Shown in pieces: positions 1 through 47,478 of a stretch of 64,000 bases of DNA (the stretch's first letter is position 1; each line of letters begins with the position of its first letter). The notes under the pieces were generated by a model. That model was given only the letters and a program-made list of their open reading frames with translations, made no database searches and was not told the DNA's origin. This DNA comes from Deltaproteobacteria bacterium. GTDB lineage: Bacteria; Acidobacteriota; Thermoanaerobaculia; Multivoradales; JAHZIX01. The position numbers and the translations under genes are program-made. The stretch covers positions 16,629 to 80,628 of the forward strand of contig JAHZIX010000006.1 in NCBI GenBank assembly GCA_022601195.1, in the 5' to 3' direction.

Positions 1-478
1 GATGCCAGGAAACTAGGATGACCCGAGTAGCCCGGCGGGCGACTCTCCGACTTGCCGTGCGCAGTAGGCGACCCTTGAGGGTGTAGCCCCCCCCCTCGCC
101 GACGATGCCGTGAAGGTCGCTGCCATGAAAGGTCACCACGAGGGGAGTCTCGGTCTTTCCAACCACCAACCCACTCTGACCGAATTGGGCGTGAATCAGA
201 TCGAAAGATTCCAAGTCCCAGCGCTGGCGAAGCTGCCGACGGGCTCGGTTGTAGTTGGCCGGGTTGTTGGCTCCTCGAAAGGGGAAGACCTCGACGGCGA
301 TTCCTGCTTCACGGAGGGCGGCCACTTGCTCTACCAAAAAGGGGACGAAGGTCGGGTTTTCGGGAGTCGGCCATTCGCTGGTTACCACGAGTACCTTGAG
401 GGGGGGGCCGGGCGTCGTTTTCCCTGAGTTAAGGGGCGAAGGGACCCCTCCCTGTTGTCGGGTGCTCACCTTCTTCAT
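1..478 (-). CDS. Glycosyltransferase family 4 (GT4), N-terminal part; gene continues beyond window start
   Basis: Manual translation of the minus strand from ATG (complement of 476-478) runs stop-free to position 1. It starts MKKVSTRQQ...LKVLVVTSEWPTPENPTFVPFLVEQVAALREAGIAVEVF...LIHAQFGQSGLVVGKTETPLVVTFHGSDLHGIV, typical of a Glyco_trans_4-like N-domain. The ATG overlaps the stop of the upstream gene (ATGA-type coupling). It is absent from the ORF track because it runs off the window edge. Confidence 0.65.
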   Translation of the reverse strand, partial: MKKVSTRQQGGVPSPLNSGKTTPGPPLKVLVVTSEWPTPENPTFVPFLVEQVAALREAGIAVEVFPFRGANNPANYNRARRQLRQRWDLESFDLIHAQFGQSGLVVGKTETPLVVTFHGSDLHGIVGEGGGYTLKGRLLRTASRRVARRATRVILVSWH

Positions 479-8022: not shown

Positions 8023-9294
8023 TCACGACTTCCAGACTCCTTTGCGCTGCTTCTGCCACTGGAGTAGCTCTTGCGTCAGGCGGCCGTAGGTGGCCTCGAA
8101 GGAGTATCGCTGGGCCACTTGTTGATGGGCCAGTTCTCCTTGTTGACGTCTTTGCATCGGGTCCTTGAGCAGCTCTAGGGCGCGCCGCGCCTGATTTTCC
8201 GGCTCGGATTCCAGAAAGATGCCCTGGCCGTCTCGAAGGTCCATGCCGGCGACGGCATCCTTAGAGGCGATCACCGGCAGGCCGAGAGCCATCACTTGAA
8301 CCAGGCGGCTTCGGAAACCATAGGTCCCTTGCCAGGGGCAAAGCACCAAGCTCATGGTGTTGAGAAGAGGCGGCGCGTCTTCCACGAATCCCGTCACGTG
8401 AACTCGGGAATCTGATTCCTCGAGGTTGCGAATCTCTGCGGGAGGGTTGGAGCCCACGATCCACAGCTCGGCTTCGGGCAGCTGCTGCCAGACCAACGGC
8501 ATGATCTTCTCGTAACAGCTGCGAGCATCTCGTTGATTGTGGACGCTGCCCAGGCCACCAAAGTAGGCCAGCCTCGGAGGCGAAGCGGGTTGCGGGTCGA
8601 AAGGCCATTCGCCGAGATCGATACCCATGGGAGCGTAAAAGACCTGCTGCTTGGGGCCGCAGTGTCGCCGCACGTAGGTGTCTTCCTCCGCATTGATGGA
8701 GATGAGGCCATCGAAGTCTCCCCAAGCCGCTTCTTCTCGCCTCCGATAGGCGGTGACCTTACGCCGACGCAGCCACGAGGGGAGCCGCGGTCGGGCTTCC
8801 AGCTGGCGCCCAAAGGACTGCCAAAGGAGGTTGTGCATATCGAGTACCGAAGGCACCCCTCGTCGCCGGAGGGCTGCGGCAGCGCGGTGAGAATGCCAGT
8901 ACTCGAAAAGAGCTAGGTCGTAGGCTTGAGGATCGATGGCTCCGAGCACTCGTTGGGGTGACAGCTCGAGCTCTCCCACCAGGTAGTTCGAAGTCTTCAA
9001 GGAACGAAGGGCGGCGTACCCCGCTGCCCGCACGCGGTGACTCCAGCGAGAAGCGGTACTTCGAGTGTAGAGGGACTCCATCACGACGGCATGATCGCAG
9101 AGCTCCTTGAGCTCCTGGCGCAAGCCCGGCCGTCGGCTGCTCTCCGCGAAAGTCAGAAAGGTCGTCTCGAAGCTCTCCCGGAGCGCCAAGAGTTTGTTGC
9201 GCACCCGTTCCCGTTGCCCAGCGACAGCTGGGAAGGGGAGAACCGCCGAGACGATCAGGATGCGCGGTCGCGACAATTTCACTTCTTCTCTCAA
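8023..9294 (-). CDS. Glycosyltransferase family 4
   Basis: 423 aa. The N-domain starts RILIVSAVLPFPAVAGQRER. The C-domain has FGGLGSVHNQRDARS...IVGSNP...LVLCPWQGTYGFRSRLVQVMALGLPVIAS, giving a GT4 architecture. Confidence 0.85.
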   Translation of the reverse strand: MREEVKLSRPRILIVSAVLPFPAVAGQRERVRNKLLALRESFETTFLTFAESSRRPGLRQELKELCDHAVVMESLYTRSTASRWSHRVRAAGYAALRSLKTSNYLVGELELSPQRVLGAIDPQAYDLALFEYWHSHRAAAALRRRGVPSVLDMHNLLWQSFGRQLEARPRLPSWLRRRKVTAYRRREEAAWGDFDGLISINAEEDTYVRRHCGPKQQVFYAPMGIDLGEWPFDPQPASPPRLAYFGGLGSVHNQRDARSCYEKIMPLVWQQLPEAELWIVGSNPPAEIRNLEESDSRVHVTGFVEDAPPLLNTMSLVLCPWQGTYGFRSRLVQVMALGLPVIASKDAVAGMDLRDGQGIFLESEPENQARRALELLKDPMQRRQQGELAHQQVAQRYSFEATYGRLTQELLQWQKQRKGVWKS

Positions 9295-11138
9295 GGTCGC
9301 TTCGCTTCTCCCGAGGCCGCCACGGTCTTTCTGCCCAACAACATAGGGCGAGAGAAGCCATCCGGGGCAAACTCTTCAACTTGTGGAAAACCGTTGGCCT
9401 GGAGGAGCCTCTTGAGGAAAGTCAAAGTGGATTTCTGAGCTTTGTTCTCGGTGGCCTGGGCTCGGGTGTCGTTCTTGGCCTGAAGCACCATCATGGGGGC
9501 GAGCTCCGCTGCTCTACGGACCACCTGAGCCATTTCCTCCTCCTCTAGGTAGTAGAGGGAGCAAAAGGCGGTCACGAGATCGAAGGAGCCCCAGTCTTCC
9601 GTCAGCACGGCACGCATATCCCGTCTCTTGAGGTCGAGGCTGTAGGACCGCATATCTCGCCAATGGAATAGGGCTTCCAATGATCGAGCGCTTTGGCAGT
9701 TTTCTTCCGACTGCTCCACCGCGACGACTTGGCGAGCTCCGGCCCGCAGCATCAGCAGGGGGAGCACACAGTTGTGGGAGCCGAGGTCGAGAATGCGTTT
9801 GCCTTCGATCTGGCCTTCCAGCGCTCGTCGGTTGAGGTACTCCCACCTCCCGGTGCCGCTGTCGACGGACCAGAAGCCGCGAGTCGCCAGGCCGTCGCCT
9901 AAGTCCACGGGGGCATAGGATTCGAGGGCCGGGGTTGCCAAGAGGGCACGGGCGCTGCCTTCCGTGAGGAGGTCTCGGTCGTAGAGTCGGTTGAACTTTG
10001 AGCGGTCGCGGTCCCGCTGTAGGGCGAAGAGGAAGCCAAGATCCGGGCCGTGGCAATAGCCATCATCGAAATCGAAGAAGCTCGGCAGGCCCTCTACCGG
10101 ATCCACAGCAACATTGCTAAAGGTGAGGCTTAAACCGGTGACGCCACGGGAGTGAATCACTTCCATCTGGCGCTCCAATTCGGCGACAAAACCTGCGCCG
10201 ACCGCTTTTTGTAGGTGCTGGGTTCCCCTCTCCAGTATCGCTGCCAGCCGCGCCGGCGGTTCCAGGGCCTCGAGGTCCGGGTCCGTCGCTGTTTGTGACA
10301 GGCGGATGCGGGCTCCGGAGCGCACCAGGAGGTCGTTCAAGGTGTCCCCAGGAAGGAAACTTCGGGTGAGGTGATAGCGCTTCTCATCGACCGCGAGAAC
10401 GGTCGGCACCCGGGCGTGACCGGCGAGTTGGTCGAGGATGGTCCACTCTTTCTGAAAAGTCCGTTGGTCGCCTCGAAAGTTCTTGCGAATGGCAACCCAA
10501 CCTTGGACTAGGACCAAATCGAGGTCGTAGCGAGATCGGTTGAGGAAATCCTCTTTGGAGCCAGGGTCGAAACCGGGGAAGGTGCCGAAGTTGGAGAGCA
10601 GCTTGCCATCGGCGTCGATGTGGCCGAGAACGACCAGCTCATCTCCCTCGCGCTGCGATTCCACCGCTCTCCGCACCGTCCCATCGACTTCCCAGCTCTG
10701 CCAATCGATGGCGCTGCCCTTGGTGGCACGATCTTTGGTGGCACCGTCTTCGAGGGGATTGGCCGAGGTAAGTAGAGAGTGAGAGGGCAGCCTCGACCGC
10801 GCCCCCTCGAGGCGCTGGCGCCTCTGGCGAGCTTCGGACAAGCTCTGCCAACTCCACCGAGCCAGTGCCAGGAACAAGCCGAGGATGATGCCTGCTGGAA
10901 TTCCAATCCATGGAACGGTAATCAGCCCGAGCAGGAAGAAGGCTGTCATCCCGGCGAAAGTCCCGGCTGCACGGACCCGACGCGGGCTGTGGTGAAAAAA
11001 GGTTCGGTAGCGCAGACGGGGCCATAGGTAGCCTCCAACCAGATAGAGCAGGTAGGAAGGTCGCCGTCGCCGGAGCACCTCCATCAGGCGGACGAGGGCA
11101 TTCATGGTGTTCTTCCACCCCAGGTCGTGACTCCGCAA
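9291..11138 (-). CDS. Membrane-anchored protein-kinase-like domain fused to C-terminal class I SAM methyltransferase (WbdD-like chain-terminator candidate)
   Basis: 615 aa with two N-terminal TM helices (LLYLVGGYLW...; FFLLGLITVPWIGIPAGIILGLFLALA). The central domain has a beta3-Lys-like WVAIRK, an FSNVAVDP catalytic-loop-like segment and a DFG-like FFDFDDG, but no canonical HxD. The C-terminus has MTase motif I KRILDLGSHNCVLPLLMLRAGARQVVAVEQSEEN. Confidence 0.55.
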   Translation of the reverse strand: MRSHDLGWKNTMNALVRLMEVLRRRRPSYLLYLVGGYLWPRLRYRTFFHHSPRRVRAAGTFAGMTAFFLLGLITVPWIGIPAGIILGLFLALARWSWQSLSEARQRRQRLEGARSRLPSHSLLTSANPLEDGATKDRATKGSAIDWQSWEVDGTVRRAVESQREGDELVVLGHIDADGKLLSNFGTFPGFDPGSKEDFLNRSRYDLDLVLVQGWVAIRKNFRGDQRTFQKEWTILDQLAGHARVPTVLAVDEKRYHLTRSFLPGDTLNDLLVRSGARIRLSQTATDPDLEALEPPARLAAILERGTQHLQKAVGAGFVAELERQMEVIHSRGVTGLSLTFSNVAVDPVEGLPSFFDFDDGYCHGPDLGFLFALQRDRDRSKFNRLYDRDLLTEGSARALLATPALESYAPVDLGDGLATRGFWSVDSGTGRWEYLNRRALEGQIEGKRILDLGSHNCVLPLLMLRAGARQVVAVEQSEENCQSARSLEALFHWRDMRSYSLDLKRRDMRAVLTEDWGSFDLVTAFCSLYYLEEEEMAQVVRRAAELAPMMVLQAKNDTRAQATENKAQKSTLTFLKRLLQANGFPQVEEFAPDGFSRPMLLGRKTVAASGEAKRP

Positions 11139-11160
11139 ACAGGCTGCATGATCGGGTGGT

Positions 11161-12003
11161 TCATCCCTTCGGTACCGCTAGGACGTGCTTTGGGTAGAGG
11201 CGGCCCCCCTCTCGAACCGGCTCGATGGGAGTGAGGGTGTAGGAGGCGGCGGTGAGGAGCCGTTGGACTGCGGTGTCGTTGGCGGGATCGTGAACCTCGA
11301 TCAGCCAGGTGGGAGGAGTCTGCGAAGCGAGCAGGTCTCTGGCCCCTTCCAGCGCTTGGCCTTCTGCGCCTTCGATGTCCATCTTGATGAAGTTAGGGGG
11401 CGGGTGGTTGGAGACGAAATCATCCAGTCGGATCGTCGACACCTGCACGGTTTCTCCCTCTTCTTGTGCTCCCTCTTGTCGAGAGGAGCTTGGCTCGGAG
11501 TCGGCGACGAGGCTCGCTTCCGTGGTGGCTCTGCCGGTGCCGAGAAAAAGGGTCGAGTGACCGGTTTCGCTGGCTACGGCGAAGGACTCCAAAGAAACCT
11601 GCTGGCAACCGTTTTGTTCCAAAGCAAGCTCCAGGAGTCGCCGGTTTGCCTCGACCGGCTCGAAAGTGAAGACCCGCCCCTTCGGCCCCACGATGCGTGC
11701 GGCCAGCAAGCTCATATAGCCGTTGTGACCACCGATGTCGTAGCACACTCCGCCCGGGCGGAGATGGCGCACCATGGTCTCCTGAGCAGGCAATTCGTAG
11801 ACCCCGAGGCGTTGGGCCAGGCCTCCGGTGAATCGGGCGCCTCGCAGGGGGCCGGAGAGGACGCGATGGCGCCGCAGAGCCCGTCGGCAAATGGCCTCGA
11901 AGGGGCGGCGGAAGGGTCCCCACCAGAGCTTCCCAAGAAGCCTCTGGAGAGGGGTAATGGTCACAGAGGATTCCTGTTCCACAGGTGTCTGGGCAGCCTT
12001 CAT
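11161..12003 (-). CDS. FkbM-family methyltransferase
   Basis: GGVCYDIGGHNGYMSLLAA...NFIKMDIEGAEGQALEGA matches the Methyltransf_21 (FkbM) hallmarks. The likely start is MKAAQ at 12003, overlapping the upstream stop as ATGA; the ORF track offers an earlier start at 12042. Confidence 0.8.
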   Translation of the reverse strand: MKAAQTPVEQESSVTITPLQRLLGKLWWGPFRRPFEAICRRALRRHRVLSGPLRGARFTGGLAQRLGVYELPAQETMVRHLRPGGVCYDIGGHNGYMSLLAARIVGPKGRVFTFEPVEANRRLLELALEQNGCQQVSLESFAVASETGHSTLFLGTGRATTEASLVADSEPSSSRQEGAQEEGETVQVSTIRLDDFVSNHPPPNFIKMDIEGAEGQALEGARDLLASQTPPTWLIEVHDPANDTAVQRLLTAASYTLTPIEPVREGGRLYPKHVLAVPKG

Positions 12004-13433
12004 GCCTTCTCTTTTCGGTCTTGGGCCAAATGCAGCAGGCACTCAGCGACACGGCGGCCGCTGTTGCCATCGAGGGTATCCCCGAACATTTCGTGGAGGA
12101 AGCGACGACGGATCTCGCTGTCTCCCTGCGGCTCGCTGAGACCCCGGTACAGCATGCTCCTCATATCTTCGACACTTCTGGCCACCATTACCGCACCGCT
12201 CTGGGCCACAGGCCAATAGTGGTCGAAGCGAATGTGGCGCTCAAAGCCGAGGGCCCACGGTAGGTTCGAGCCGGGGGGGTCGAAATCGAGATTCATCACC
12301 GGTTTGTCGAACAGCAGCAGCTCGAGAGAAACGGTGGAGGCAGCGTTGATTCCAACGGTGGCGTGGCGCAGTAGGTTGGAGTAGAGAGCCAGGTCCTCGA
12401 AAAGGGGTGTTTGCCAACGAGGTTCCCATAGGACTTCCGGAAACACTACGTCCGGGAGGTTGCGTTTCGACAGTTCCAGCATCTCGGGGCTGGTGCCCTT
12501 GACGTAGGTCCGCACCACCAGTTGTGGCTTGTGGGGCAGATCCAGCTCTGCAAGGATGCGGATCACTTCCTCTACGTGGCGATGCTCTTCGAAAAAGTGA
12601 TTCGAGATTCCGGTGGTGTAGAGAACGAAGGGTCGATTGGCGTCGAGGCCAACCCGTTGACAGAGCTCCTCTCGGGAGAGCTCCAGATCCGATTTGAGAT
12701 GAAAGTCGAATTGGGGAGTGCCGGTCGTCCAAACGTTTTCCGCTTTGACCCTCGGGTAGATTTCCAGGAGCTGCTGGCGCATGTTCTCGTGCCATACCAG
12801 GTAGTGGTCGTAGGGCGGAAAGATGCGGCTACGGGAGGTGAGATTGTCCCAGGAGAAAATGAAGCCCGCGGTGGGGATGCCCATGCGCTTGGCGACTCGA
12901 ATGGGCAGCTCTCCGGCCTGGCCATGGATATGGGAGCCGTTAAACACTAGGTCCGGTTGGAGTTCTTCGAATAATTCGTCGAACCGGCGGGTCGGCCGCA
13001 GAGTGTAGCTCAGGCGGTTTTCCAGGGCGGTCAGGGCGTGGAGGCTCGGGGAGTTGGCGAGGAGTCTGGAGGCAGCTTTGATCAGCCACCGCTGCAAGCT
13101 CTTGCCCCGCTCGGCGGCGCGGCGATCCCGTAGCTCCCAATGGTTTCGGGCGACGGCGCTCCATAGCCACCGGTCGTGGGCATTCTCGGTGAGAGTTCGC
13201 AAATAGTAGGAGAGGCGCGGCTGCGGCAGCTCAGAGAGGGGCAGGATCGCCTCGACGAAGGGCCGGAAAGGTTCCACGAAGGCCTCGTCGTGAACCACCG
13301 TCAACACGGTGACCCGTGCCTGCTCGTGAAGGGTCCGCAGGGTCTCGGAGTAGAGGAAGTTGCGCACCGCCTCTCCGCGCGGGATCACCAGCACAACGTG
13401 GGGTCGCGAGGACTTGTTTTCTGGGGAAGTCAA
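12000..13433 (-). CDS. GT-B-fold surface-polysaccharide biosynthesis protein (TagF/KpsS-like glycosyl- or polyol-phosphate transferase); possible ulosonic-acid transferase
   Basis: 477 aa. RPFVLYTTGISNHFFEE resembles the TagF-family YAPTWR region. Its position immediately next to the NeuB-like/CMP-synthetase pair is the usual place for the cognate transferase. The assignment is weak. Confidence 0.4.
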   Translation of the reverse strand: MTSPENKSSRPHVVLVIPRGEAVRNFLYSETLRTLHEQARVTVLTVVHDEAFVEPFRPFVEAILPLSELPQPRLSYYLRTLTENAHDRWLWSAVARNHWELRDRRAAERGKSLQRWLIKAASRLLANSPSLHALTALENRLSYTLRPTRRFDELFEELQPDLVFNGSHIHGQAGELPIRVAKRMGIPTAGFIFSWDNLTSRSRIFPPYDHYLVWHENMRQQLLEIYPRVKAENVWTTGTPQFDFHLKSDLELSREELCQRVGLDANRPFVLYTTGISNHFFEEHRHVEEVIRILAELDLPHKPQLVVRTYVKGTSPEMLELSKRNLPDVVFPEVLWEPRWQTPLFEDLALYSNLLRHATVGINAASTVSLELLLFDKPVMNLDFDPPGSNLPWALGFERHIRFDHYWPVAQSGAVMVARSVEDMRSMLYRGLSEPQGDSEIRRRFLHEMFGDTLDGNSGRRVAECLLHLAQDRKEKA

Positions 13434-13491
13434 GGCAGGCCTATTCCGTTAGTAGCAGATGCTCTCGCCGCGGCAATTTTCAGATCAGGCC

Positions 13492-15381
13492 TCAAAGGAC
13501 CCCGAAACGTCCCAAGCGGTGGATGGCTTCCACAAAACCCGCGGCGTTGTGCAAATGCCCGCTCCAGATCTCCGGCACCCAGCTAAAGTCTTTGTGGGAG
13601 AGGAGCTCCATCAAGTCATCCCATTCCACGACGCCCTCACCGATCTGCAACCCTTCGCCATCGATTCCGCTGGCATCGGCGACGTGCAGATGACGCACAT
13701 GGGGCAGACACAGGTCGACGAAATCCTGCAGCTTGCGGTGATAGAAGTTGCAATAGAGCTGGGCGTGGGAGATATCCAGAGTCATCCCCAGGCCTAGCTC
13801 CTGGCAGAACTCCACCAATTCCTCCGGTCGGATGAAGACGTTCTGGACCCATTGCCCTCCCAGGTACCAAGGCCGGGGAGGAAGATTTTCCGGCAGCAGA
13901 ATGGTGCCCTTCGCATCGAGTCGGCGAAAGGCCTCCACGGCTCGACCGAGGAGCAGGTCGTGGCGCTCGATGGGCTCGTCCATGCTCATGCCGCCGACAT
14001 GGATGACCACGCCCACGGGACCGGTGAAATGAGCTTGCATGGCAGCAGCCTTGTCGATGGTGCGCTGCATCAGAGTGATGGCTTGTTCACGGATCTCGTC
14101 ATCGAAGGAACAAAGGTCCAGGAGTCGGCTGTCGGAAAACTCGGGAGCATGAATGAACAGCTGCTGCGGGTGAGGCGAGGGGGGAGCTTCGAAAGGGTGA
14201 TCCACATCCGCTTCGCTGAAATGAAGCTCCACTAATTTCGGCTTCTTCTCCAGAATCTCCTGGAGATCGTGGAAGCGGGCCTTGAGTCCCCAGGTACGGA
14301 CCAGCTTCGAGGGTTCCAGGACGCGATCCGTGCCGGTCGACAAGTCCCCCTCGGTGAAATATTCGTCCTCTTCGATATTGCGATCCAAACGAGTGCCGAG
14401 GAGCTCTTGCATGCGCTGGGGGGAGAGCCCTTTGCCGGGTCCCTTGACTCGCACCATTGCTCGCTCGACGACCGTGCCCGTTGCCAAGTCTCGAGACGCG
14501 ACCAGGCTCTTGCGCAGCACCTGGCGATTGAGCATCTCCATGGTGGAAAGGTGTTTGACTTGGTCCCCTAGAGCAATTTCTCCATGGCGAATATCGCGCA
14601 CCAACTTCTGGATCCCTGCCGGCTCCAGACTCGCTGGGTGGTCCGGTCCAGGGAGGGTGCGGTCCAGGGTGATGTGTTTTTCGATGATCACGGAGCCCAA
14701 GGCCAAGGCCAGCATGGGGACGGCAATGCCCCGTTCGTGGCTGCTGTAACCCACCGGCACGTCCAACTCCTTGAGTCGCTCCAGGTAGCGCAAGTTGAGG
14801 CTCTCGAAGGGGGCCGGGTAGGTGCTGACGCAGTGGAGCAAGGCGAAGGAGGCGCCGAGATTCTTGAGGTGGCTAACGGTTCTCTCGATCTCCTCCGGAG
14901 TCGCCATGCCCGTCGAGAGAATCAGGGGCTTGCCCGTAGCGGTCAATTTTTCCAGCAAGGGCAAATTGACCAGATCCGCAGAGGCCACTTTGTAGATGCT
15001 CACTCCGAGCTCTTCGAGAAACTCCAGGCTCGGGGCGTCCCAGGGAGTGCACATGAAGCGGATTCCCTTTTCGTCGCAGCGCGCCTTGATCTGGTGGAAG
15101 CCGTCGTCGGTGAGCTCCTGCTGTTGGAGGATCGGTAGAAGGTATTGAAAAGCCCACTCGGCAGAGTTGGGATCGTTGAGCAGCTTGGCCGGGTACAGGC
15201 TCTTGACGTTCCGTTTCTGAAATTTGACCGCGTCGGCACCGGCTTCCGCAGCGACATCGACCAGCTTTAGGGCCATGTCCAGGCTACCGTTATGGTTCAC
15301 GCCGGCCTCGGCGATGATGAAGCAGGGCTCGCCCGTTCCGATACGGCGATCTTCCAGTTGCAAATAAGGTGTCTCAGGCAT
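13492..15381 (-). CDS. NeuB-family ulosonic-acid synthase (PEP-condensing, with SAF domain) fused to a C-terminal xylose-isomerase-like TIM-barrel (AP_endonuc_2) domain
   Basis: The N-terminal CFIIAEAGVNHNGSLDMALKLVDVAAEAGADAVKFQ is the classic NeuB/PseI/LegI motif. The SAF region lies around SLVASRDLATGTVVERAMVRVKG. Residues ~350-629 carry LHVADASGIDGEGLQIGEGVVEWDDLMELL, typical of sugar-phosphate isomerase/epimerase TIM barrels. Confidence 0.8.
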   Translation of the reverse strand: MPETPYLQLEDRRIGTGEPCFIIAEAGVNHNGSLDMALKLVDVAAEAGADAVKFQKRNVKSLYPAKLLNDPNSAEWAFQYLLPILQQQELTDDGFHQIKARCDEKGIRFMCTPWDAPSLEFLEELGVSIYKVASADLVNLPLLEKLTATGKPLILSTGMATPEEIERTVSHLKNLGASFALLHCVSTYPAPFESLNLRYLERLKELDVPVGYSSHERGIAVPMLALALGSVIIEKHITLDRTLPGPDHPASLEPAGIQKLVRDIRHGEIALGDQVKHLSTMEMLNRQVLRKSLVASRDLATGTVVERAMVRVKGPGKGLSPQRMQELLGTRLDRNIEEDEYFTEGDLSTGTDRVLEPSKLVRTWGLKARFHDLQEILEKKPKLVELHFSEADVDHPFEAPPSPHPQQLFIHAPEFSDSRLLDLCSFDDEIREQAITLMQRTIDKAAAMQAHFTGPVGVVIHVGGMSMDEPIERHDLLLGRAVEAFRRLDAKGTILLPENLPPRPWYLGGQWVQNVFIRPEELVEFCQELGLGMTLDISHAQLYCNFYHRKLQDFVDLCLPHVRHLHVADASGIDGEGLQIGEGVVEWDDLMELLSHKDFSWVPEIWSGHLHNAAGFVEAIHRLGRFGVL

Positions 15382-15616
15382 GACGGCTCTCGTTTCTCAC
15401 GGTGCTCCCTCTGGCCAGCGTGTTTTCTCTAGTCAGTGTGCTCGTTCTTCTGACAACGCTCATGGCGCTGAATACGTGCGCTGTTTTTGCGATGCGCAGG
15501 GTCTTATCTATGCGCAGATCTCTTCGGTGCAGAGGTTTTTACCCATGCAGACTACGCTGAACAACGCTCGCCGGTGCCGGCCGGAAGGGTCTTCACAAGA
15601 TCTTAGGGATGGAGAT

Positions 15617-16315
15617 TCAGGACTTGACCGCGCGGCGCAACTGAAAGAGCTGCTCCATGCGCGGAAGATCTTCGGGCTCGTCGATCTGGAACGAATCAAG
15701 GGGGTCCATCCGGTGAACGGCGATTCTACCACCTAGACGGTTGCCATGGCGACGCAGCACCCAGGGCTTGAAGAGATAGATCGAACCGTTTTCTAGTAGA
15801 TCTTCTCCCAGATCCTGGCGGCGTTGACGCCTCTCGAAGTCGTAGCTAACGGAGCTCAGGCCCTGGGCATTCAGGCGCCATACGAATCCGTGAACCGGGC
15901 AAGCGGAAAACAAGCTGTCTGCCCCTTCTCGGTGCAGGGTTTCGATGGCCCGGGCTATGTCTTCCGGTTGGCGCAGAGGGGATGTGGCTTGGAGGAAGAG
16001 GACTAGGTCTGGCACGTATCCCTCCTCCTGTTCCAGGTGATCCAATGCATGGACCAGAGCCGACTCGGAGCTGGCTTCGTCGCCACTGATGTCTACCGGG
16101 CGGTGGACGACTTCAGCACCGTACTCGCTGGCCACTCCGGCGATGACCTGGTCATCCGTGGAGACGACCACCCGGTCCACGGCGGAAGCTTGTCGAGCTT
16201 GCTCGATGCTATGGGCGACCAGAGGTTTTCCCGCTACCAGGTGGACGTTTTTTCCAGGTATTCCTTTGGAGCCCCCCCGGGCAGGGATCAGGGCGAGGAT
16301 GGAAGGTGCGCTCAA
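15617..16315 (-). CDS. CMP-ulosonic acid synthetase (acylneuraminate/KDO cytidylyltransferase family)
   Basis: ALIPARGGSKGIPGKN N-terminal motif, 232 aa. It is separated from the synthase gene by an unusual 235-bp gap. Confidence 0.85.
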   Translation of the reverse strand: MSAPSILALIPARGGSKGIPGKNVHLVAGKPLVAHSIEQARQASAVDRVVVSTDDQVIAGVASEYGAEVVHRPVDISGDEASSESALVHALDHLEQEEGYVPDLVLFLQATSPLRQPEDIARAIETLHREGADSLFSACPVHGFVWRLNAQGLSSVSYDFERRQRRQDLGEDLLENGSIYLFKPWVLRRHGNRLGGRIAVHRMDPLDSFQIDEPEDLPRMEQLFQLRRAVKS

Positions 16316-18105
16316 GGGGTCGCTCCTTTGTTCGGTTGATGGGATGGCTGCGGACTCTGGGGTGGCTTCGGTTCCTGGAGCGGCGAAGTTGCCGGCGTGG
16401 TGGAACCTCTTGGAAGCAATAGACCATCTGGAAGCGACAGGTCTTCTGGAAAGGACAGGTCATTTGGTAGCGAAAGGGCGAACAGCAGTAGGTGCTCGGA
16501 TCGAAGGATCTCGGTGGCAAAGCTCGGTGGGCTGGAGAAATCCTGCTGATGCTCCGAATCTACCGCCAGGTAACCGAGAGACCCGGGAAAGACTCTAGGT
16601 AGCTCCTCTCTCACTCTCTCTACCAGAGGCCAGTTGGTGACCCCTCGCACAACGTGCCGCTCCGCGTAATAGACGGGAATCATATTGGTTTGAGGAGACA
16701 ACACCACGGCGCCCTGAGGGATGGCCTGGCGGATTTCTTGGGCGTAGTCCAAGAGAGGGTGGGAGATCTCGCGGGGGCCGGAGGCGTTTACCCTTCCCTT
16801 GGCAACCAGGGGGAAAAGCAGGGTTGCTGGAAGAACGCCCAGGAGAGTCCAGCGGGCTGCCCTGCGTAGGGCAGGGGACGGGGAGACATCGCAGTGGGCT
16901 AGAGCGCTGGCTACTGCCACTCCGACGCTGCCGGCAAGAAACGGAGCGCCGATATACATCTCGTATTGGTGGTTATAGGCGTGGTTCTTCATCAAGAGGA
17001 ACCAAGCGACCCACATAGTGGCCAGTCCACCGAGAGCGTAACCTGCCTCGATGTTTGGTCGACGGCGGTGTAGCCAGCCAGCTATCACTGCCCATCCTGC
17101 CGCCGTAACCACGAGCTGTCCGTTGGCCCAGATTCGCTCCGCGAAGGTGAGAACAACCTGGGCTAGGGAAGGTTGTAGATAGCTGCCGTAGCTGTGGTGG
17201 TTGACCAGGGTATGCACCTGAAAAGCCTGCTCTGGGGAGTACTCGAGGCCGAGGCGAAAGGCGACGGTGTGCCAAAGGTCCTCCAACAGCCCCGGCGACT
17301 GCCATGCGTAGAGCCCCATGACCAGGAAGACGGTGACTCCGGCGGTGAGGCAGTAGCCAGCTGCCAAGACCAGGTCGAATCGCCGTCGCCGAAACAGCGC
17401 CAGGCCCAGCAGGCCCCCTGTGGCGAGGGCTGGTTCCCAGGAGGTTCCCACGGCGGCTGCCATGGAGGTGATTCCGAGCCAAGGCCAGGGGCTTTTCCAC
17501 TGGTTTTGTTTCGTCTGGTTTTGTTTCGTCTGGGTTCGTTTCGTCTGGGCCCGTTTCGTCGCTTCGACAAAGCCGAGCAAAGCGAGAAGGGTAAAGGCCA
17601 GGGCCAGATGGAGATGCATCACCATTTCTCCCTTGATGGCCACGATAGGCAAGCAAAGGAAGGTGAAGGCTCCTACCAGAGCAGCGCGTTGGCTCAGGCA
17701 GGCACGCAGCAGCCAACCGACAAGGGCAGCGTTTATGAGCAAAAGGAAGGTGGCGAAGCCACGGGCGGCCATGGGGGACTCCCCAAACACTGCAAAAACC
17801 CAGCTCAAGACAATGGGGAAAAGGGGGGGCCAATGAAGATAGGCATCCGGTTCCAGGCCCAATGGTGAGTGGTTCTGGATGGGTAGACCGCCCAGCCCGA
17901 ATACTCCGTGCTCCTGATATGCGTGGGCTATGGTCGCGAAGTGGGCCGACACCCAACCGTTGGTGACCAGGGGTTGAGAATAGCGAAGGCCGTGGCTGAT
18001 CAGGGTCAACAGGATCGCCAGAGCCAACCAGGCGAGCAGGATAGGTTCCCTGGTGGCGGCAGGGTTCCTGGCTTCCTCGGCCTCGGGCTGTCGGTGGGCT
18101 TCCAT
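16312..18105 (-). CDS. GT-C-fold polytopic membrane glycosyltransferase (ArnT/PMT-like, polyprenyl-P-sugar dependent)
   Basis: 597 aa, many TM helices, large hydrophilic C-terminal domain. An internal five-residue repeat TKRAQ/TKRTQ/TKQNQ/TKQNQ is encoded by a 15-bp tandem DNA repeat. The start overlaps the UbiA gene by 1 nt. Confidence 0.55.
   Translation of the reverse strand: MEAHRQPEAEEARNPAATREPILLAWLALAILLTLISHGLRYSQPLVTNGWVSAHFATIAHAYQEHGVFGLGGLPIQNHSPLGLEPDAYLHWPPLFPIVLSWVFAVFGESPMAARGFATFLLLINAALVGWLLRACLSQRAALVGAFTFLCLPIVAIKGEMVMHLHLALAFTLLALLGFVEATKRAQTKRTQTKQNQTKQNQWKSPWPWLGITSMAAAVGTSWEPALATGGLLGLALFRRRRFDLVLAAGYCLTAGVTVFLVMGLYAWQSPGLLEDLWHTVAFRLGLEYSPEQAFQVHTLVNHHSYGSYLQPSLAQVVLTFAERIWANGQLVVTAAGWAVIAGWLHRRRPNIEAGYALGGLATMWVAWFLLMKNHAYNHQYEMYIGAPFLAGSVGVAVASALAHCDVSPSPALRRAARWTLLGVLPATLLFPLVAKGRVNASGPREISHPLLDYAQEIRQAIPQGAVVLSPQTNMIPVYYAERHVVRGVTNWPLVERVREELPRVFPGSLGYLAVDSEHQQDFSSPPSFATEILRSEHLLLFALSLPNDLSFPEDLSLPDGLLLPRGSTTPATSPLQEPKPPQSPQPSHQPNKGATP
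17501..17560. repeat. 15-bp tandem repeat x4 (tggttttgtttcgtc; two perfect plus two diverged copies) inside GT-C coding sequence
   Basis: Read directly: tggttttgtttcgtc tggttttgtttcgtc tgggttcgtttcgtc tgggcccgtttcgtc. In frame this encodes TKxxQ pentapeptide repeats. Confidence 0.8.
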
Positions 18106-19100
18106 TACATGCCCGGAACGGTTGGTTCCAGGAGGCGATGCACCCAGGGGATATCGAAGTAGAGCAGCAGGAGGATCACTGCAGCGCAGCCGAGGATGGC
18201 GAACATCAGGTGGGGTTCTTTGTACAGTCGCTCCGGAGCTTGGGCGGCACTGTTGTTCTTGAAAGCTACTGAGAGGTATAAGGCCATCACCAAGGCAACA
18301 AAGGGAAAAGAGAGAATCAGCTCCAGGCGGTACCTCATGATGAAAGCGCCTAGGAAGAGCATGGCTGCCGAGCTATAGAACATCACTGAGATCAACAGCT
18401 TGTCCAGTGTGTAGACGCCGAAGGAGCGCCGGTAGCCGGTGGTCTGCGCCGTACTGCCCAACTGCCTCAGCTCGGCGTAGCGTTTGATGGCCATGAAGTA
18501 CGCCCCCACCATCCAATAGCTAAGCAATAGGGAGCCTGGGGGAGCTCCCAAGGGAGTGGCTATATACCAACCGGCGAGCATGCGCAGGGGGTTGTTGACC
18601 GCTTCGGACAGGGCGTCCAAGTAGGCGACTTCCTTGGTTCGAATGGGGCGGACGTTGTAGACCACCCCCATGAGCCAGAGGGCTCCGAGAGTCCAGGCCA
18701 ACCCCGGGGAGACAGAGGCTCCCAAAGCGATTCCGGCTGCGCCGAAGACGATCCATTGGAGGTACGCGAGAGGGATGTGTACCTGGCCACTTGGAACCGG
18801 CCGGTGGCGCTTAGTGGGGTGGAGGCGATCAAAAGGGGCGTCGAGGACCTCGTTCAAAGTGTAGTTGCTGGAGGCCACCAAACAGGTGGCCAGGAGCCCC
18901 ACGGCAATCGCTAGCCAGAGCTGGTTGCCGGCGGCTTGGGGAGCCAGGGTCAAGGCGACGACGATGCCCGGCAGCACGAAGACATTCTTTACCCAATGGT
19001 CGAGGCGCAGGATGGCTAGATGGCCCGCCAGAGAAGGACGGCTCGCTTCGGTGGGCCGGGAGGAGCTGCTGGGGGCAGGTGGTTGAGGGGGCTCGCTCAA
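18105..19100 (-). CDS. UbiA-superfamily prenyltransferase, decaprenyl-phosphate phosphoribosyltransferase (DPPR)-like
   Basis: NEVLDAPFDRLHPTKRHRPVPSGQV contains the NxxxDxxxD motif plus the R..RP.PSG segment of UbiA enzymes. A second acidic motif lies at YLDALSE. It has ~8 TM helices and 331 aa. Confidence 0.75.
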   Translation of the reverse strand: MSEPPQPPAPSSSSRPTEASRPSLAGHLAILRLDHWVKNVFVLPGIVVALTLAPQAAGNQLWLAIAVGLLATCLVASSNYTLNEVLDAPFDRLHPTKRHRPVPSGQVHIPLAYLQWIVFGAAGIALGASVSPGLAWTLGALWLMGVVYNVRPIRTKEVAYLDALSEAVNNPLRMLAGWYIATPLGAPPGSLLLSYWMVGAYFMAIKRYAELRQLGSTAQTTGYRRSFGVYTLDKLLISVMFYSSAAMLFLGAFIMRYRLELILSFPFVALVMALYLSVAFKNNSAAQAPERLYKEPHLMFAILGCAAVILLLLYFDIPWVHRLLEPTVPGM

Positions 19101-20008
19101 GGCTGCCTCGCGTAGAGTACGACCATCGAATCTCTAGGGTTTACAGGGATCACACGTTCATAAAGCCAAGCTAGTGGCGCGATGCGTTTGGCCATCCGGT
19201 TCACGAAGCCAACGGGGAGGTAGCGCTCCAGGCGTTCCGCCACGTATCCCACGGGGAAGAACCACCGAGCCCGGCGAAAGCCAATGGGGTGAAGGCCCGC
19301 TGCCTGCGCCGCACGGTCGAGGGATCGACGGTCGAAGTAGCCTACATGGGCGAGACGAAAGTGCCACCAACGATGCCGCAGTATCTTGGCTGCAAGGCTG
19401 CCCACATCCGGCGTTACGACCATCAATCGGCCGTTCGATTCCATGCCCTCGGCACAAGCGCGCAGCAAGGCCACCGGATCGGGGACATGCTCGATGACGT
19501 CGATCAGACAAACCGCGTCGAAGCGGTGTCCGCTCAACTTTGGGTGGGGATAGGTTCCTTGCAGAATTCCCACGCTGTGGAGTCGTTGGGCCGTTGCCAC
19601 GAGGGCTTGGCTTGGCTCGACCCCCTCGGTCTTCCAGCCTCGAAGATTGGCCTCGGCGATCAGGGCTCCAGCTCCAGCTCCGATGTCCAAGAGGGTCTTG
19701 GCTTCGGGAGCGGCCTTGCGCAGCACCTTCAGCAACCAGCTCATTTGCAAGCGCCGGCTTTCCTGACCTTCTTCATACCCGGAGTCTTCGAGTTCTTCAT
19801 AGAGACTCAGCAGCTTCGCCAATTCGCCGCCTTCAGCAAAGATAAAGCCGCAATCCGGACAACGGACAAGGGATAGGGTCAGGCCGTAGCGAGCATCGGT
19901 GATTTTGAGATCATCGGGTACCAGCTCCCGGTCGAGATTTCTCGGCTTCCAGGGCTGGCTCTGGAGCGAGCCGCAGATCCAGCAAGCGTTTTCTATGAGT
20001 CTTTCCAT
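19097..20008 (-). CDS. Class I SAM methyltransferase with N-terminal Zn-ribbon
   Basis: CWICGS...CPDCG forms a Cys4 ribbon. MTase motif I is LLDIGAGAGALIAEANLRG. Motif III/post is VCLIDVIEHVPDP...GRLMVVTPD. Confidence 0.75.
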   Translation of the reverse strand: MERLIENACWICGSLQSQPWKPRNLDRELVPDDLKITDARYGLTLSLVRCPDCGFIFAEGGELAKLLSLYEELEDSGYEEGQESRRLQMSWLLKVLRKAAPEAKTLLDIGAGAGALIAEANLRGWKTEGVEPSQALVATAQRLHSVGILQGTYPHPKLSGHRFDAVCLIDVIEHVPDPVALLRACAEGMESNGRLMVVTPDVGSLAAKILRHRWWHFRLAHVGYFDRRSLDRAAQAAGLHPIGFRRARWFFPVGYVAERLERYLPVGFVNRMAKRIAPLAWLYERVIPVNPRDSMVVLYARQP

Positions 20009-20056
20009 GGTACCCGCGGATCATGGCACATTTGCCTTCTGCTACACTCGCCCGCC

Positions 20057-21466
20057 ATGAAACTCAGTGTGTTGATTCCCGTGTACAACGAGCGCTATCT
20101 CGTGGCAGAGCTGGTGCGCCGAGTCTTGGTGGCACCGCTTCCAGAAGGGGTCGGACGGGAGATTATCATCGTCGATGATGGCTCCCGGGACGGTACTGTG
20201 GAAGTGGTCGCGAAGATGGAGAGCGAGCACCCTGACCAGATTCGTTTCATTCAGCACGAAAAGAACCAAGGCAAGGGTGCCGCGGTTCGGACTGCGATTC
20301 GCGAGGCCAGCGGCGATTTCGCCATCTTTCAGGACGCCGACTTGGAATACGATCCCCGCGACTACGAGCGACTCCTGGAGCCTCTTTTGTCCGGTCAGGC
20401 GGATGTGGTCTACGGCTCCCGCTTCCTTCCTTCTCAACGTCGCCGTGTTCTCTATTTTTGGCACAGCCTGGGCAACCGCTTCCTCACCCTTCTGTCCAAT
20501 ATGTTTACCAATCTCAATCTCACCGACATGGAAACCTGCTACAAGGTTTTTCGCACCGAGGTCCTAAAGACGATCCCCATTCGCAGTAACGATTTCGGCC
20601 TCGAGCCGGAGATCACCGCCAAGGTTTCCAAGCGGGGGCTGCGTCTCTACGAAGTTCCCATTAGCTATGACGGGCGAACCTATCTGGAAGGCAAGAAGAT
20701 CGGTTGGAGGGATGGCTTACGGGCCCTCTACGTGATCCTCAAGTATCACTTCATCGACGATCTCTACGATGAGAAAACCGGCCATGCGATCCTCTCGGAC
20801 CTGTCTCGGGCGCACCGGTTCAATCGTTGGATGGCAGACATCATCCGCCCCGAGTTGGGCCACTCAGTGCTCGAAGTGGGAGCTGGAATCGGCAATCTCA
20901 CCTCCCAGCTACTGCCTCGGGAACGGTACATCGCTAGCGATTTCGACGATCTTCACCTCGATGTCCTGCAAAATCTGGCCATGAATCGGGTCGGCCTCGA
21001 CGTCCATCGTCTCGATGCCTCAGAGGCCGAGGGCTATGCAGGCTTTCGGGGCGATATCGACTCTATAGTCTGCCTCAATGTTCTCGAGCACATTCCCCAA
21101 GCGGCGGCCTCGTTGAAGAATTTTTACGATTCCTTGGCCCCAGGGGGCCGAGTGATCATCTTGGTGCCTCAGGGGAAATGGCTCTTCTGTCCTTTGGACG
21201 AGGCTTTGGAGCACGTCAAGCGCTATTCGCCCCAGGAGCTGCGAGAGGAACTGGAGGCAGCGGGTTTCGAGGTGGAAAAGGTCCGTCATTTCAACCGCAT
21301 CGGAGTGATCGGCTGGTTCTTGAACGGCAAATTGCTGCGTCGGGTTCAGCTGGCCAAGATTCAGCTGAAGATTTACGACTCCTTGGTGTGGCTCTGGCGA
21401 GGCATCGATCGGTTCTTACCGTGGCATGGACTCTCGGTCATCGCCGTGGGCCGCAAGCCGGAATAG
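20057..21466 (+). CDS. GT2 polyprenyl-phosphate sugar synthase (ArnC/DPM1/GtrB-like) fused to C-terminal class I SAM methyltransferase domain
   Basis: The N-terminal MKLSVLIPVYNE...IIVDDGSRDGT...IFQDADLEYDP...VVYGSRF matches the DPM1/ArnC family. C-terminal residues ~260-469 carry SVLEVGAGIGNLTSQLL...SIVCLNVLEHIPQ...GGRVIILVPQ (MTase motifs I and III). Confidence 0.8.
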   Translation: MKLSVLIPVYNERYLVAELVRRVLVAPLPEGVGREIIIVDDGSRDGTVEVVAKMESEHPDQIRFIQHEKNQGKGAAVRTAIREASGDFAIFQDADLEYDPRDYERLLEPLLSGQADVVYGSRFLPSQRRRVLYFWHSLGNRFLTLLSNMFTNLNLTDMETCYKVFRTEVLKTIPIRSNDFGLEPEITAKVSKRGLRLYEVPISYDGRTYLEGKKIGWRDGLRALYVILKYHFIDDLYDEKTGHAILSDLSRAHRFNRWMADIIRPELGHSVLEVGAGIGNLTSQLLPRERYIASDFDDLHLDVLQNLAMNRVGLDVHRLDASEAEGYAGFRGDIDSIVCLNVLEHIPQAAASLKNFYDSLAPGGRVIILVPQGKWLFCPLDEALEHVKRYSPQELREELEAAGFEVEKVRHFNRIGVIGWFLNGKLLRRVQLAKIQLKIYDSLVWLWRGIDRFLPWHGLSVIAVGRKPE

Positions 21467-28261: not shown

Positions 28262-28263
28262 GA

Positions 28264-47159: not shown

Positions 47160-47478
47160 GTATCCAGGATTATGTACCAGGAGCCTGTAGTGAAAGTCTC
47201 TTGTTTGCGAGAGCGAGCGATCTTTCGGTGAATCCAGAAGGCAAACCGGAGCCAAACCTGGGGTTCGTCGAGGACCTCGCTGCGCCGGGTCGCGGAGTCG
47301 CTGGAAGAGACCCGCTCGCCGCCAGAGAGAGTCGCACTACAGGCTCCTTGGCCAGGGTTTCCTGCTCGATCGTTCGCCGATGTTCGGCTCCAGAATACTC
47401 CCCTCCGCTACGGGACCTGGGCGGTGAGGGGAATTCCGTTGAGGCTCGCAGACTCTATGTGTAGATTCGGCTATACTC

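Follow-up and report, generated by a model that had tools for sequence, protein, structure and literature searches.

A probable nonulosonic acid synthesis, activation and transfer module, with a TagF-related GT-B clade and a NeuB-TIM barrel fusion, in an Acidobacteriota polysaccharide locus

Little is known of the enzymes by which bacteria attach sialic-acid-like sugars (PMC5420450), and a candidate module for making and transferring such a sugar is described here from a 64-kb stretch of contig JAHZIX010000006.1 (positions 16,629 to 80,628; hereafter the window, in whose numbering all coordinates are given). The module consists of three genes, encoding a 232-aa cytidine monophosphate (CMP)-sugar synthetase, a 629-aa NeuB-type synthase and a 477-aa glycosyltransferase (GT) of the GT-B fold. 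In Tannerella forsythia, the BFO_1060 orthologues Tanf_01245 and TFUB4_00887, described as TagB-like GT-B proteins, are needed for the terminal pseudaminic or legionaminic acid (Pse/Leg) derivative on the S-layer O-glycan (PMC5420450). The nonulosonic acid (NulO) Kdn (2-keto-3-deoxynononic acid) is made in Bacteroides thetaiotaomicron and Prymnesium from mannose 6-phosphate and phosphoenolpyruvate, by way of Kdn-9-phosphate and Kdn, and is then converted to CMP-Kdn (PMC6200933). [quoted passage not shown] In Escherichia coli O9a and K. pneumoniae O12, only terminated chains are exported (PMC11231755).

As in Tannerella, a TagB/TagF-like GT-B protein is encoded in the window beside CMP-NulO biosynthesis genes and a methyltransferase gene. 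The window clade differs from the BFO_1060 family in its size (~470-500 aa), in a four-helix insertion, in aligning to only 164 of the 365 positions of the family model, and in its occurrence in ATP-binding cassette (ABC)-exporter polysaccharide loci of Acidobacteriota, Verrucomicrobiota and Armatimonadota, whereas the Tannerella proteins belong to protein O-glycosylation in the Bacteroidota. NulO modules are already known; new in this one are the transferase, from a clade not yet characterised, and a fusion of NeuB to a triosephosphate isomerase (TIM) barrel that has not been studied. We consider it likely that the module makes a CMP-activated nine-carbon NulO, most likely Kdn or a relative, which would be attached in the cytoplasm to a lipid-linked glycan. 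The NeuB domain would, by homology, condense phosphoenolpyruvate with a hexose of mannose configuration, and the NeuA-like synthetase would form the CMP-sugar. The fused TIM domain may make the aldose substrate by isomerisation or epimerisation, which is the favoured role, or may remove a 9-phosphate. On family affinity and near-universal synteny, the 477-aa GT-B would then transfer the acid from the CMP-sugar to a polysaccharide built by neighbouring GT4 enzymes; the methyltransferases encoded alongside would afterwards modify the product, and Wzm-Wzt would export it. A sequence-only reading of the window had proposed an ulosonic-acid synthesis, activation and transfer module at this place. 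All three open reading frames (ORFs) are present on the minus strand at the coordinates proposed (Table 1), their family matches and the model given below leave no room for chance ORFs, and all three genes fit such a module by homology, by fold, by family affinity and by a CMP-synthetase gene adjoining the GT-B gene in 32 of 33 close loci.

The synthetase is NeuA-like and far closer to the CMP-sialic acid synthetases than to KdsB. Its N-terminus is MSAPSILALIPARGGSKGIPGKN, with a P-loop-like motif of the PARxGSKxxxxKN type (ALIPARGGSKGIPGKN) at residues 8-23; this motif, which the sequence-only reading had quoted for the CMP-sugar synthetase, is real, and the protein is a member of the CTP_transf_3 family (PF02348; E 1.1e-28, 100.9 bits against a gathering cut-off of 22.6). 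No curated equivalog threshold of NCBIfam was passed, the PseF model scoring 129 bits, under its cut-off, and the KdsB models 50-74 bits (E 1e-13 to 1e-20) against cut-offs of 155-281. In a search of the PDB, the best match was mouse CMP-Neu5Ac (N-acetylneuraminate) synthetase (3.9e-32); mouse and bacterial CMP-Neu5Ac synthetases matched at 4e-32 to 1e-24 and KdsB at ~1e-11. No phosphatase domain is fused to the window synthetase.

In Pfam scans, the 629-aa protein was divided into a NeuB domain (residues 40-276), a SAF domain (291-347; E 2.9e-08) and an AP_endonuc_2 TIM barrel (410-620). The NeuB domain is a member of PF03102 over the full model (E 3.3e-81, 272.8 bits, cut-off 22.1), and the TIM domain is a member of PF01261 (E 1.9e-23, 83.9 bits, cut-off 31.1). 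This gene had been read as a NeuB-like synthase; its NeuB family was confirmed, but the protein is not a plain NeuB, the C-terminal TIM-barrel domain having been missed. The best-scoring subfamily was the N-acetylneuraminate synthase equivalog TIGR03569, a model of the Neu5Ac/Leg type (348.1 bits, below the cut-off of 399.65), and the PseI model TIGR03586 gave 247.4 bits (cut-off 340.25). The solved-structure relatives of the NeuB part are all NulO synthases (6ncs, 3.4e-54; PseI, 1.3e-46; Neisseria meningitidis NeuB, ~4e-42).

The 477-aa protein is probably a CMP-NulO:glycan NulO transferase, and is put forward here as a candidate of a TagF-related clade. More than 1400 homologues were found at E<=1e-3; when 1.84 billion representatives (clusters at 50% identity) were searched exhaustively with HMMER, 4961 cluster representatives came up at the same threshold. 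Searches with the single sequence gave little, Glyco_transf_4 scoring E 9e-4 and the PDB yielding no match. An alignment of 50 relatives (60-82% identical) was used for the structural model, the family profile and the family votes. The AlphaFold model was confident (predicted local distance difference test, pLDDT, 91.4; predicted template modelling score, pTM, 0.91), with two Rossmann-like domains and the four-helix insertion at residues 73-144; the family profile found no chain in the PDB. Among the 50 relatives, the Pfam votes went to Glyphos_transf (TagF) in 35, Epimerase_2 in 16 and Glyco_transf_4 in 15, and the NCBIfam votes to the BFO_1060 family in 44 (best E 6.1e-16), a 'surface carbohydrate biosynthesis' family in 24 and NeuC in seven (E>=0.05). 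The window protein itself matched the BFO_1060 family NF046086 at E 1.2e-11, with residues 137-292 on model positions 23-186 of 365. This Tannerella Pse/Leg transferase family is the sole annotated relative with a clear sequence link, and the window clade is related to it without being a member. More distant relatives (profile E ~1e-50) pass PF04464 over the same region at 27-54 bits, and some of them also carry a fused module, either a GT4 or a second TagF-like one; these fusions support a transferase over an epimerase. The relation to TagF/TagB is at superfamily level only.

Residues conserved across the superfamily are SWDN (194-197), W214, GxPQFD (238-243), R308, N363, S366-T367, P378, H405 and R442. 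The bacterial GT-B sialyltransferases are marked by D/E-D/E-G and HP motifs; the protein lacks a literal HP motif, and D196, within SWDN, and H405 are both conserved at superfamily level. The public record of an identical protein is 455 aa long and starts 22 codons later than the TTG at 13433; since that start would delete the invariant R19-G20-E21 and the first beta strand, the TTG and the 477-aa product are to be preferred. The sequence-only reading had called this protein a TagF/KpsS-like GT-B and had marked the assignment as weak. It is now much stronger, with a confident model of the GT-B fold, the affinity to the TagF superfamily, the genetically validated Tannerella NulO transferases as the closest curated family and the adjoining synthetase gene. 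The KpsS part of the name did not hold: kinship with KpsS/KpsC (GT107, Pfam Capsule_synth) or WbbB (GT99) was found neither by Pfam, nor by sequence and profile searches of the PDB, nor among the top 50 structural matches, and homology to the Kdo transferases of Klebsiella O12 and Raoultella is not supported. The bacterial sialyltransferases GT38, GT52 and GT80 likewise gave no PDB sequence or profile match.

The window's proteins were used to search for related loci, and 20 genome loci and 80 metagenome loci (labelled L) were collected for synteny. A close set was defined as the 33 loci with a GT-B of >=55% identity and >=4.5 kb of upstream sequence, and a distant set held 13 loci at 39-54% identity. 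Near the GT-B gene, the close set had a CMP-synthetase gene in 32/33 loci, NeuB in 27/33, a haloacid dehalogenase (HAD) domain of the KdsC type in 22/33 and a TIM domain in 3/33, with both HAD and TIM in 0/33. Four architectures were distinguished. In type A, seen in the window and in L003, L005, L015, L060, L061 and L066 (where the fusion is ~70% identical), a synthetase gene is followed by NeuB-SAF-TIM and the GT-B. In type B, the majority (e.g. L001), the synthetase is fused to a HAD phosphatase of the KdsC/YrbI type and is followed by a short, ~290-aa NeuB lacking SAF and by the GT-B. Type C (L027, L039, L044) has a synthetase fused to a different HAD-like domain, then NeuB-SAF-cupin and the GT-B, and type D (L051, L094) has a plain synthetase, a short NeuB and the GT-B. 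The type B HAD domain in L001 matched Hydrolase_3 and passed TIGR01670 (113 bits); against the models for KdsC and for Kdn-9-P phosphatase it scored 123 and 84 bits, under the cut-off in either case (180 for the latter). The second HAD-like domain of type C carries a DIDGV motif and matched the EcbF/BcbF capsule phosphatase model at E 9.2e-06, and the type C cupin matched Cupin_2 (5.1e-12) and the D-lyxose isomerase family (Lyx_isomer; 24.2 bits, cut-off 20.8).

Downstream of the GT-B gene, the commonest partner is an stp1-like GT4 gene, found 1.3-3.6 kb away in ~35 loci, distant ones included, and followed in order by a GT4, a polysaccharide deacetylase, a second GT4, a GNAT-like protein and a Wzy_C protein. 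Some AT-rich marine distant loci have GT2 and epimerase genes upstream of the GT-B instead. Loci in the series L072-L105 (e.g. L093, L101 and L105, on marine contigs of ~30% GC) keep the downstream GT4/deacetylase/GNAT/Wzy_C synteny with no CMP-synthetase or NeuB within 10 kb; the donor of these GT-B homologues may differ, or the donor genes may lie elsewhere.

With regard to the acid, none of KdsA, KdsB, NeuC, PseB/C, DegT, a dehydratase/aminotransferase pair or a HAD phosphatase was found among the ORFs scanned in the window. The acid had been left as Kdo or a nonulosonate, and it is the nonulosonate that stands; Kdo as the product was ruled out, as neither KdsA nor KdsB was found and the synthase is of the NeuB type and the synthetase of the NeuA type. 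The lack of KdsA, KdsB, NeuC and amino-sugar genes points to a NeuB-derived nine-carbon sugar made from a hexose already in the cell, and with no NeuC, PseB/C or DegT found, mannose or mannose 6-phosphate from central metabolism is the simplest reading of the precursor. In the sister loci, the phosphatase fused to the synthetase suggests that NeuB there makes a phosphorylated acid from a hexose 6-phosphate. These loci resemble the Kdn pathway of B. thetaiotaomicron (phosphatase BT1713, synthase BT1714) and Prymnesium parvum (PMC6200933): the synthase is of the NeuB type, the phosphatase is KdsC-like, a CMP-synthetase is present and amino-sugar genes are lacking. Unlike that pathway, the window showed no HAD phosphatase, and its synthase carries SAF and a TIM barrel as fused domains. 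Three different NeuB lineages are paired with one and the same highly conserved GT-B; given the phosphatase route, the lack of amino-sugar genes and a single conserved GT-B accepting the product of all three lineages, Kdn or a close relative is the most economical guess. No literature on Kdn in Acidobacteria was found.

Several observations weigh against this assignment of the module. The window GT-B lies below all curated thresholds (44.4 bits against 200 for BFO_1060, 12.9 against 22.1 for PF04464), and the NeuB part lies below the equivalog cut-offs for the Neu5Ac and Pse synthases, so that the identity of the sugar is drawn from context only. A CMP-synthetase gene was present in only 6 of the 13 distant loci, and GT-B homologues at 39-45% identity often have neither CMP-synthetase nor NeuB within 10 kb. 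In L024, the TIM domain accompanies a NeuB beside DegT and dehydratase genes, and its role need not be tied to Kdn. Finally, the best Foldseek matches of the GT-B model in the PDB were UDP-GlcNAc 2-epimerases, NeuC among them (TM-score ~0.55, E ~3e-11). Together with the weak Epimerase_2 matches of 16 relatives, and an N-terminal PRGEAVRN that we take to be reminiscent of the GTRPEAIK motif of the epimerases, this could make the 477-aa protein a divergent NeuC-like hydrolysing NDP-sugar 2-epimerase, which would give NeuB its hexose and complete a neuABC trio. We hold this to be quite improbable. The structural matches also include GT4 enzymes (E ~1e-10, TM-score ~0.55), and at 12-15% identity they appear to reflect generic GT-B similarity. 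The NeuC model was matched by seven of the 50 relatives, against 44 for the BFO_1060 transferases, and the window protein matched neither PF02350 nor TIGR03568. Relatives are fused to GT4 or TagF modules, and the phosphatase of the sister loci implies a hexose 6-phosphate substrate, which is not what a hydrolysing epimerase yields.

The TagF affinity could instead mark an ordinary polyol-phosphate transferase (using CDP-glycerol or CDP-ribitol) with no connection to the NulO genes. Glyphos_transf is the commonest Pfam match among the relatives, the distant relatives pass its threshold, and the window GT-B has the GT-B fold in common with TagF/TagB (PF04464) and presumably the pattern of GxPxxD followed by LYxxT/G. 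This alternative is nonetheless very improbable. The ORFs scanned in the window included no CDP-alcohol genes of the TagD, TarI or TarJ type, and the genomic partner of the GT-B, a cytidylyltransferase kept beside it in nearly all close loci, is of the NeuA type and not of the IspD/TagD type. The BFO_1060 family, itself TagB-like, transfers a NulO. The sequence-only reading had named a grouping with polyol-phosphate transferases unrelated to ulosonic acids as counting against it; the GT-B does fall in the TagF superfamily, but in a branch tied to NulO transfer and adjoined by a NeuA-type synthetase, so that the reading is not overturned on this ground. A NulO transferase is the preferred assignment. 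Within the clade of the window protein the link to CMP-NulO is firm; over the superfamily as a whole it is unproven.

The TIM domain of the synthase is predicted to be a metal-dependent sugar (or sugar-phosphate) isomerase or epimerase, or a phosphoesterase. Its AlphaFold model (pLDDT 94.4) had MJ1311, UlaE, endonuclease IV and ketose 3-epimerases as Foldseek neighbours (TM-score 0.6-0.7), and the family profile matched MJ1311 (1.3e-17), Mycobacterium tuberculosis endonuclease IV (4.4e-10) and L-ribulose 3-epimerase (1.7e-05) in the PDB. The best NCBIfam match was the CbiR phosphodiesterase (E 6.5e-05, below cut-off). Invariant residues include H59, E62, D184, H187, H214, D217, E224, E252 and H257, and His, Glu and Asp positions are conserved when the family is aligned with MJ1311 and with endonuclease IV of M. 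tuberculosis. The motifs HAPE, VxHxGG, LPEN, LDxSH, HLHxxD and VPE align opposite HAP, VHGG, LEN, LDTCH, VHCND and CE of endonuclease IV, and the metal ligands are presumably held in the motifs that hold them in that enzyme; the segment RDRH has no counterpart there.

In public data the TIM domain is nearly always fused to NeuB or adjoins it (Chloroflexota, Planctomycetota, Coriobacteriia, Patescibacteria), and the NeuB-TIM fusion is widespread in metagenomes and in several phyla, L021 and L023 also carrying it; no literature was found on NeuB fusions with a xylose-isomerase-like or a sugar-phosphate-isomerase domain. We lean towards an isomerase or epimerase that feeds NeuB, because a cupin isomerase fills the same fusion slot in type C loci and because the TIM domain of L024 accompanies a NeuB beside DegT and dehydratase genes. 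A non-HAD phosphatase acting on a NulO-9-phosphate is a minor and rather doubtful alternative, suggested by the mutual exclusion with HAD (TIM and HAD beside the same GT-B in 0/46 loci) and by the endonuclease-IV-like residues. A strict replacement of the HAD phosphatase by TIM was rejected: L051 and L094 have neither domain, the type C loci carry a second HAD type and a cupin, and the DegT and dehydratase genes near the TIM-linked NeuB of L024 make a 9-phosphate unlikely there.

As the sequence-only reading had it, the module lies immediately upstream, in the direction of transcription, of an FkbM-family methyltransferase and a 615-aa kinase-like/methyltransferase fusion. The slot between the GT-B and the stp1-like GT4 varies among loci: FkbM and the fusion occur there singly or, as in the window, together, and a GT2-like gene or a ~300-aa protein may stand there instead. 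FkbM homologues follow the GT-B in L004, L008, L027, L030, L031, L033, L039, L047, L066-L068 and others. The ~300-aa protein is conserved directly after the GT-B in many related loci (11437-12366 in L005; same position in L004, L006, L008, L043, L067, L072-L082, L093, L097, L101 and L105) and is absent from the window; its N-terminal LSRGGSNLF recalls the phosphoadenosine phosphosulfate (PAPS) loops of sulfotransferases, but no significant PDB match was found and that identity was rejected.

The 615-aa fusion is conserved downstream of the GT-B in at least 14 loci. A profile of its middle region matched only protein kinases, weakly (7e-4; CK2 ~0.015), and did so over the catalytic loop. Invariant residues are the VAIK-type lysine, the glutamate of helix C, the asparagine of the catalytic loop and the aspartate of DFD; the catalytic aspartate of HRD is replaced by serine or leucine (GVTGLSLTFGN); the protein may be an atypical kinase or a pseudokinase and is a candidate terminal-modification enzyme. 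It recalls WbdD (Escherichia coli O9a, K. pneumoniae O3) in joining a protein-kinase-like region to an S-adenosylmethionine (SAM)-dependent methyltransferase in a locus with Wzm and a Wzt that has a carbohydrate-binding domain. Unlike WbdD, its domain order is reversed, it is anchored by an N-terminal transmembrane segment and not by a C-terminal helix, and it has no coiled coil. Homology to WbdD was rejected, there being no sequence similarity, a weak kinase match and no HRD aspartate.

The sequence-only reading had further suggested that the exported polymer is capped by the acid and that the cap is read by Wzt. In related loci Wzm and Wzt are syntenic. The listed ORF for Wzt (26972-28585) is too long by a spurious N-terminal stretch of 107 codons overlapping wzm; the gene really starts with the ATG at 28264 (MNDAILAEDLGKRY), which abuts the wzm stop codon and gives a 430-aa protein. 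This protein scored 40.5 bits against Wzt_C (PF14524; cut-off 30.4) and is thus a Wzt bearing the binding domain that is looked for in terminator-dependent export; the sister loci L009 and L004 gave 46 and 22 bits. A Wzt ATPase domain was found within 10 kb upstream of the GT-B in 10/33 close loci, and all 14 of the complete Wzt proteins near homologous modules carry a C-terminal extension of 147-180 aa. Seven loci (L004, L009, L057, L059, L065, L070, L099) have the order wzm-wzt-(synthetase/NeuB)-GT-B; a wzm-wzt-terminator order is known from the E. coli O9a and K. pneumoniae O12 operons. The Wzt binding domains fall into clusters that are only 22-45% identical and could not be aligned by tblastn, whereas the Wzt ATPase domains are 66-80% and the GT-B proteins ~60-70% identical. 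No clear pattern linked these clusters to the FkbM or kinase-like content of the loci, among which too few were complete. Like WbbB (GT99; K. pneumoniae O12, Raoultella terrigena) and the O4 ORF7 (GT137), the window GT-B is a putative CMP-ulosonate transferase near a wzm-wzt pair with a binding domain. Unlike theirs, its sugar would be nine-carbon and NeuB-derived instead of Kdo, and it showed no detectable kinship to the GT99 structures of WbbB in the PDB. No coiled-coil ruler was seen in its compact two-domain model, where the last helices have 15-19 residues, and inspection of the sequence of the 615-aa fusion, with no dedicated predictor run, revealed no long coiled coil.

It is possible, and is proposed tentatively, that the GT-B adds a single NulO to the non-reducing end, perhaps methylated or phosphorylated by FkbM or the kinase-like fusion, which would stop polymerisation and be bound by the Wzt binding domain so as to license export. 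The Wzt_C domain of the window, the extensions of all complete Wzt proteins, the position of the module or the GT-B directly after wzm-wzt in the seven loci, the addition of a terminal NulO by the nearest annotated family and the translational coupling of the GT-B gene to a methyltransferase gene all favour such a cap. The missing ruler speaks against it, as does the divergence of the binding domains beside a conserved GT-B, for which a variable cap would account better than a constant NulO; the varying slot after the GT-B (FkbM, kinase-like fusion, ~300-aa protein) would explain the variable binding domains better, and the constant pairing of GT-B and GT4 resembles a two-enzyme polymerase. 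In a different, likewise tentative, account the GT-B would act within the chain, building with the stp1-like GT4 a NulO-containing backbone or regular side branch, as happens in ABC-exported capsules that contain NulO, and the end signal would be a methyl or phospho modification by FkbM or the kinase-like fusion. In its favour, no part of the loci is more conserved than the GT-B/GT4 pair (~35 loci, distant ones included), the protein has its TagF affinity, some relatives carry a second, fused glycosyltransferase module as capsule polymerases do, and binding domains and modifier genes vary where the GT-B is constant. Against an in-chain role, there is no evidence that the GT-B is processive, its only annotated relative adds a single terminal residue, and with at least eight other glycosyltransferases in the window the backbone need not involve it. 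A more far-reaching proposal, rather unlikely as a whole, would have a new multi-phylum NulO transferase family, a Kdn-like residue with variable decoration as the export signal read by rapidly diverging Wzt binding domains, and the TIM domain as a new isomerase/2-epimerase or non-HAD phosphatase of NulO biosynthesis, interchangeable with HAD and cupin.

The module belongs to one long minus-strand gene array (~475 to 37239). The end of the upstream GT-C gene overlaps the start of the synthetase gene by 4 nt (16312-16315); the synthetase and synthase genes are separated by 235 nt without an ORF, and the synthase and GT-B genes by 58 nt. The FkbM gene probably starts with the ATG at 12003 and is probably translationally coupled to the GT-B gene, whose stop overlaps that codon as ATGA (12003-12000), with AGAAGG before it. 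Promoter and terminator scans of 9000-20200 gave nothing exceeding shuffled expectation. An entry identical to the 477-aa protein lies on a 424-kb metagenome-assembled contig labelled Deltaproteobacteria; the closest relatives of the module genes are found in Thermoanaerobaculia and other Acidobacteriota, in Limisphaerales/Verrucomicrobiota and in Chthonomonas.

Table 1. Features of the window discussed in the text
Feature	Position in window	Strand	Remarks
Wzy_C protein	475-1980		O-antigen ligase/polymerase-like
GT4 glycosyltransferase, stp1-like	8023-9294	minus	Glyco_trans_1_4 E 1.3e-18; TIGR03087 113 bits, under cut-off
Membrane-anchored kinase-like/class I methyltransferase fusion	9291-11138	minus	615 aa; Methyltransf_25 at residues 449-545
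FkbM-family methyltransferase	11161-12042	minus	Methyltransf_21 E 1.2e-21; TIGR01444 93 bits, over cut-off
GT-B glycosyltransferase, TagF-related clade	12000-13433	minus	477 aa, TTG start; candidate NulO transferase
NeuB-SAF-TIM synthase fusion	13492-15381	minus	629 aa, ATG start
Xylose-isomerase-like C-terminal TIM-barrel domain	13492-14325	minus	AP_endonuc_2 (PF01261); predicted metal-dependent
NeuB catalytic domain	14554-15264	minus	Residues 40-276; PF03102 positions 1-241/241
NeuA-like CMP-nonulosonate synthetase	15617-16315	minus	232 aa, TTG start
GT-C/PMT_2-like membrane protein	16312-18105		
UbiA-family protein	18105-19100		
GT2+methyltransferase fusion	20057-21466		Strand opposite to GT-C/UbiA-family neighbours
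GT-C/PMT_2-like membrane protein	21416-22945		
Wzt ABC-transporter ATPase	26972-28264	minus	ABC_tran E 3.9e-20; C-terminal carbohydrate-binding domain ~27071-27445
Wzm ABC-2 permease	28264-29160	minus	ABC2_membrane E 1.4e-15
Wzy_C protein	37204-38664		O-antigen ligase/polymerase-like
Wzy_C protein	40746-42170		O-antigen ligase/polymerase-like
WbaP-like initiating transferase	45759-47255		
MTHFR and methionine synthase	47479-51967		Full-length, cobalamin-dependent methionine synthase
MBOAT + AlgX-like pair, PPK2, two PilZ + Cds6_C proteins	52030-54646, 57822-62015		

The main ORFs across the window were scanned with Pfam, and the window was found also to encode GT4, GT2 and GT-C glycosyltransferases, Wzm/Wzt, Wza, Wzc, CpsB, a WbaP-like initiating transferase, MBOAT/AlgX and MetH/MTHFR; the cluster has at least seven SAM-dependent methyltransferases. 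Two GT-C/PMT_2-like membrane proteins are encoded near a UbiA-family protein, which resembles decaprenyl-phosphate phosphoribosyltransferase (below cut-off), and a GT2+methyltransferase fusion; these genes (16312-22945) suggest a polyprenyl-phosphate-sugar branch for decoration of the polymer in the periplasm. Three separate Wzy_C proteins occur in the same cluster as Wza, a Wzc-like tyrosine kinase, a CpsB phosphatase and the WbaP-like transferase, and no Wzx flippase was found in the window cluster; the machinery is an unusual mixture of ABC-dependent and Wzy-type components. Genes for MTHFR (methylenetetrahydrofolate reductase) and methionine synthase stand beside the methyltransferase-rich cluster and may give local support to methyl supply. 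Beyond them lie genes for an O-acetylation pair (MBOAT and an AlgX-like protein), for a polyphosphate kinase (PPK2) and for two PilZ + Cds6_C proteins in tandem, the last of which may link polysaccharide production to control by cyclic di-GMP.

In Acidobacteriota, Verrucomicrobiota and Armatimonadota, one highly conserved clade of GT-B proteins is linked with CMP-sugar genes. These phyla abound in soils, sediments and sludge, habitats in which nonulosonic acids have been detected and their genetics is largely unknown. The four architectures of the module (TIM, KdsC-type HAD, second HAD with cupin, none) amount to a natural swap experiment, which points to an unstudied NeuB-TIM enzyme. If a NulO is indeed the end signal read by Wzt, the paradigm of the Klebsiella Kdo cap would extend to nine-carbon acids.

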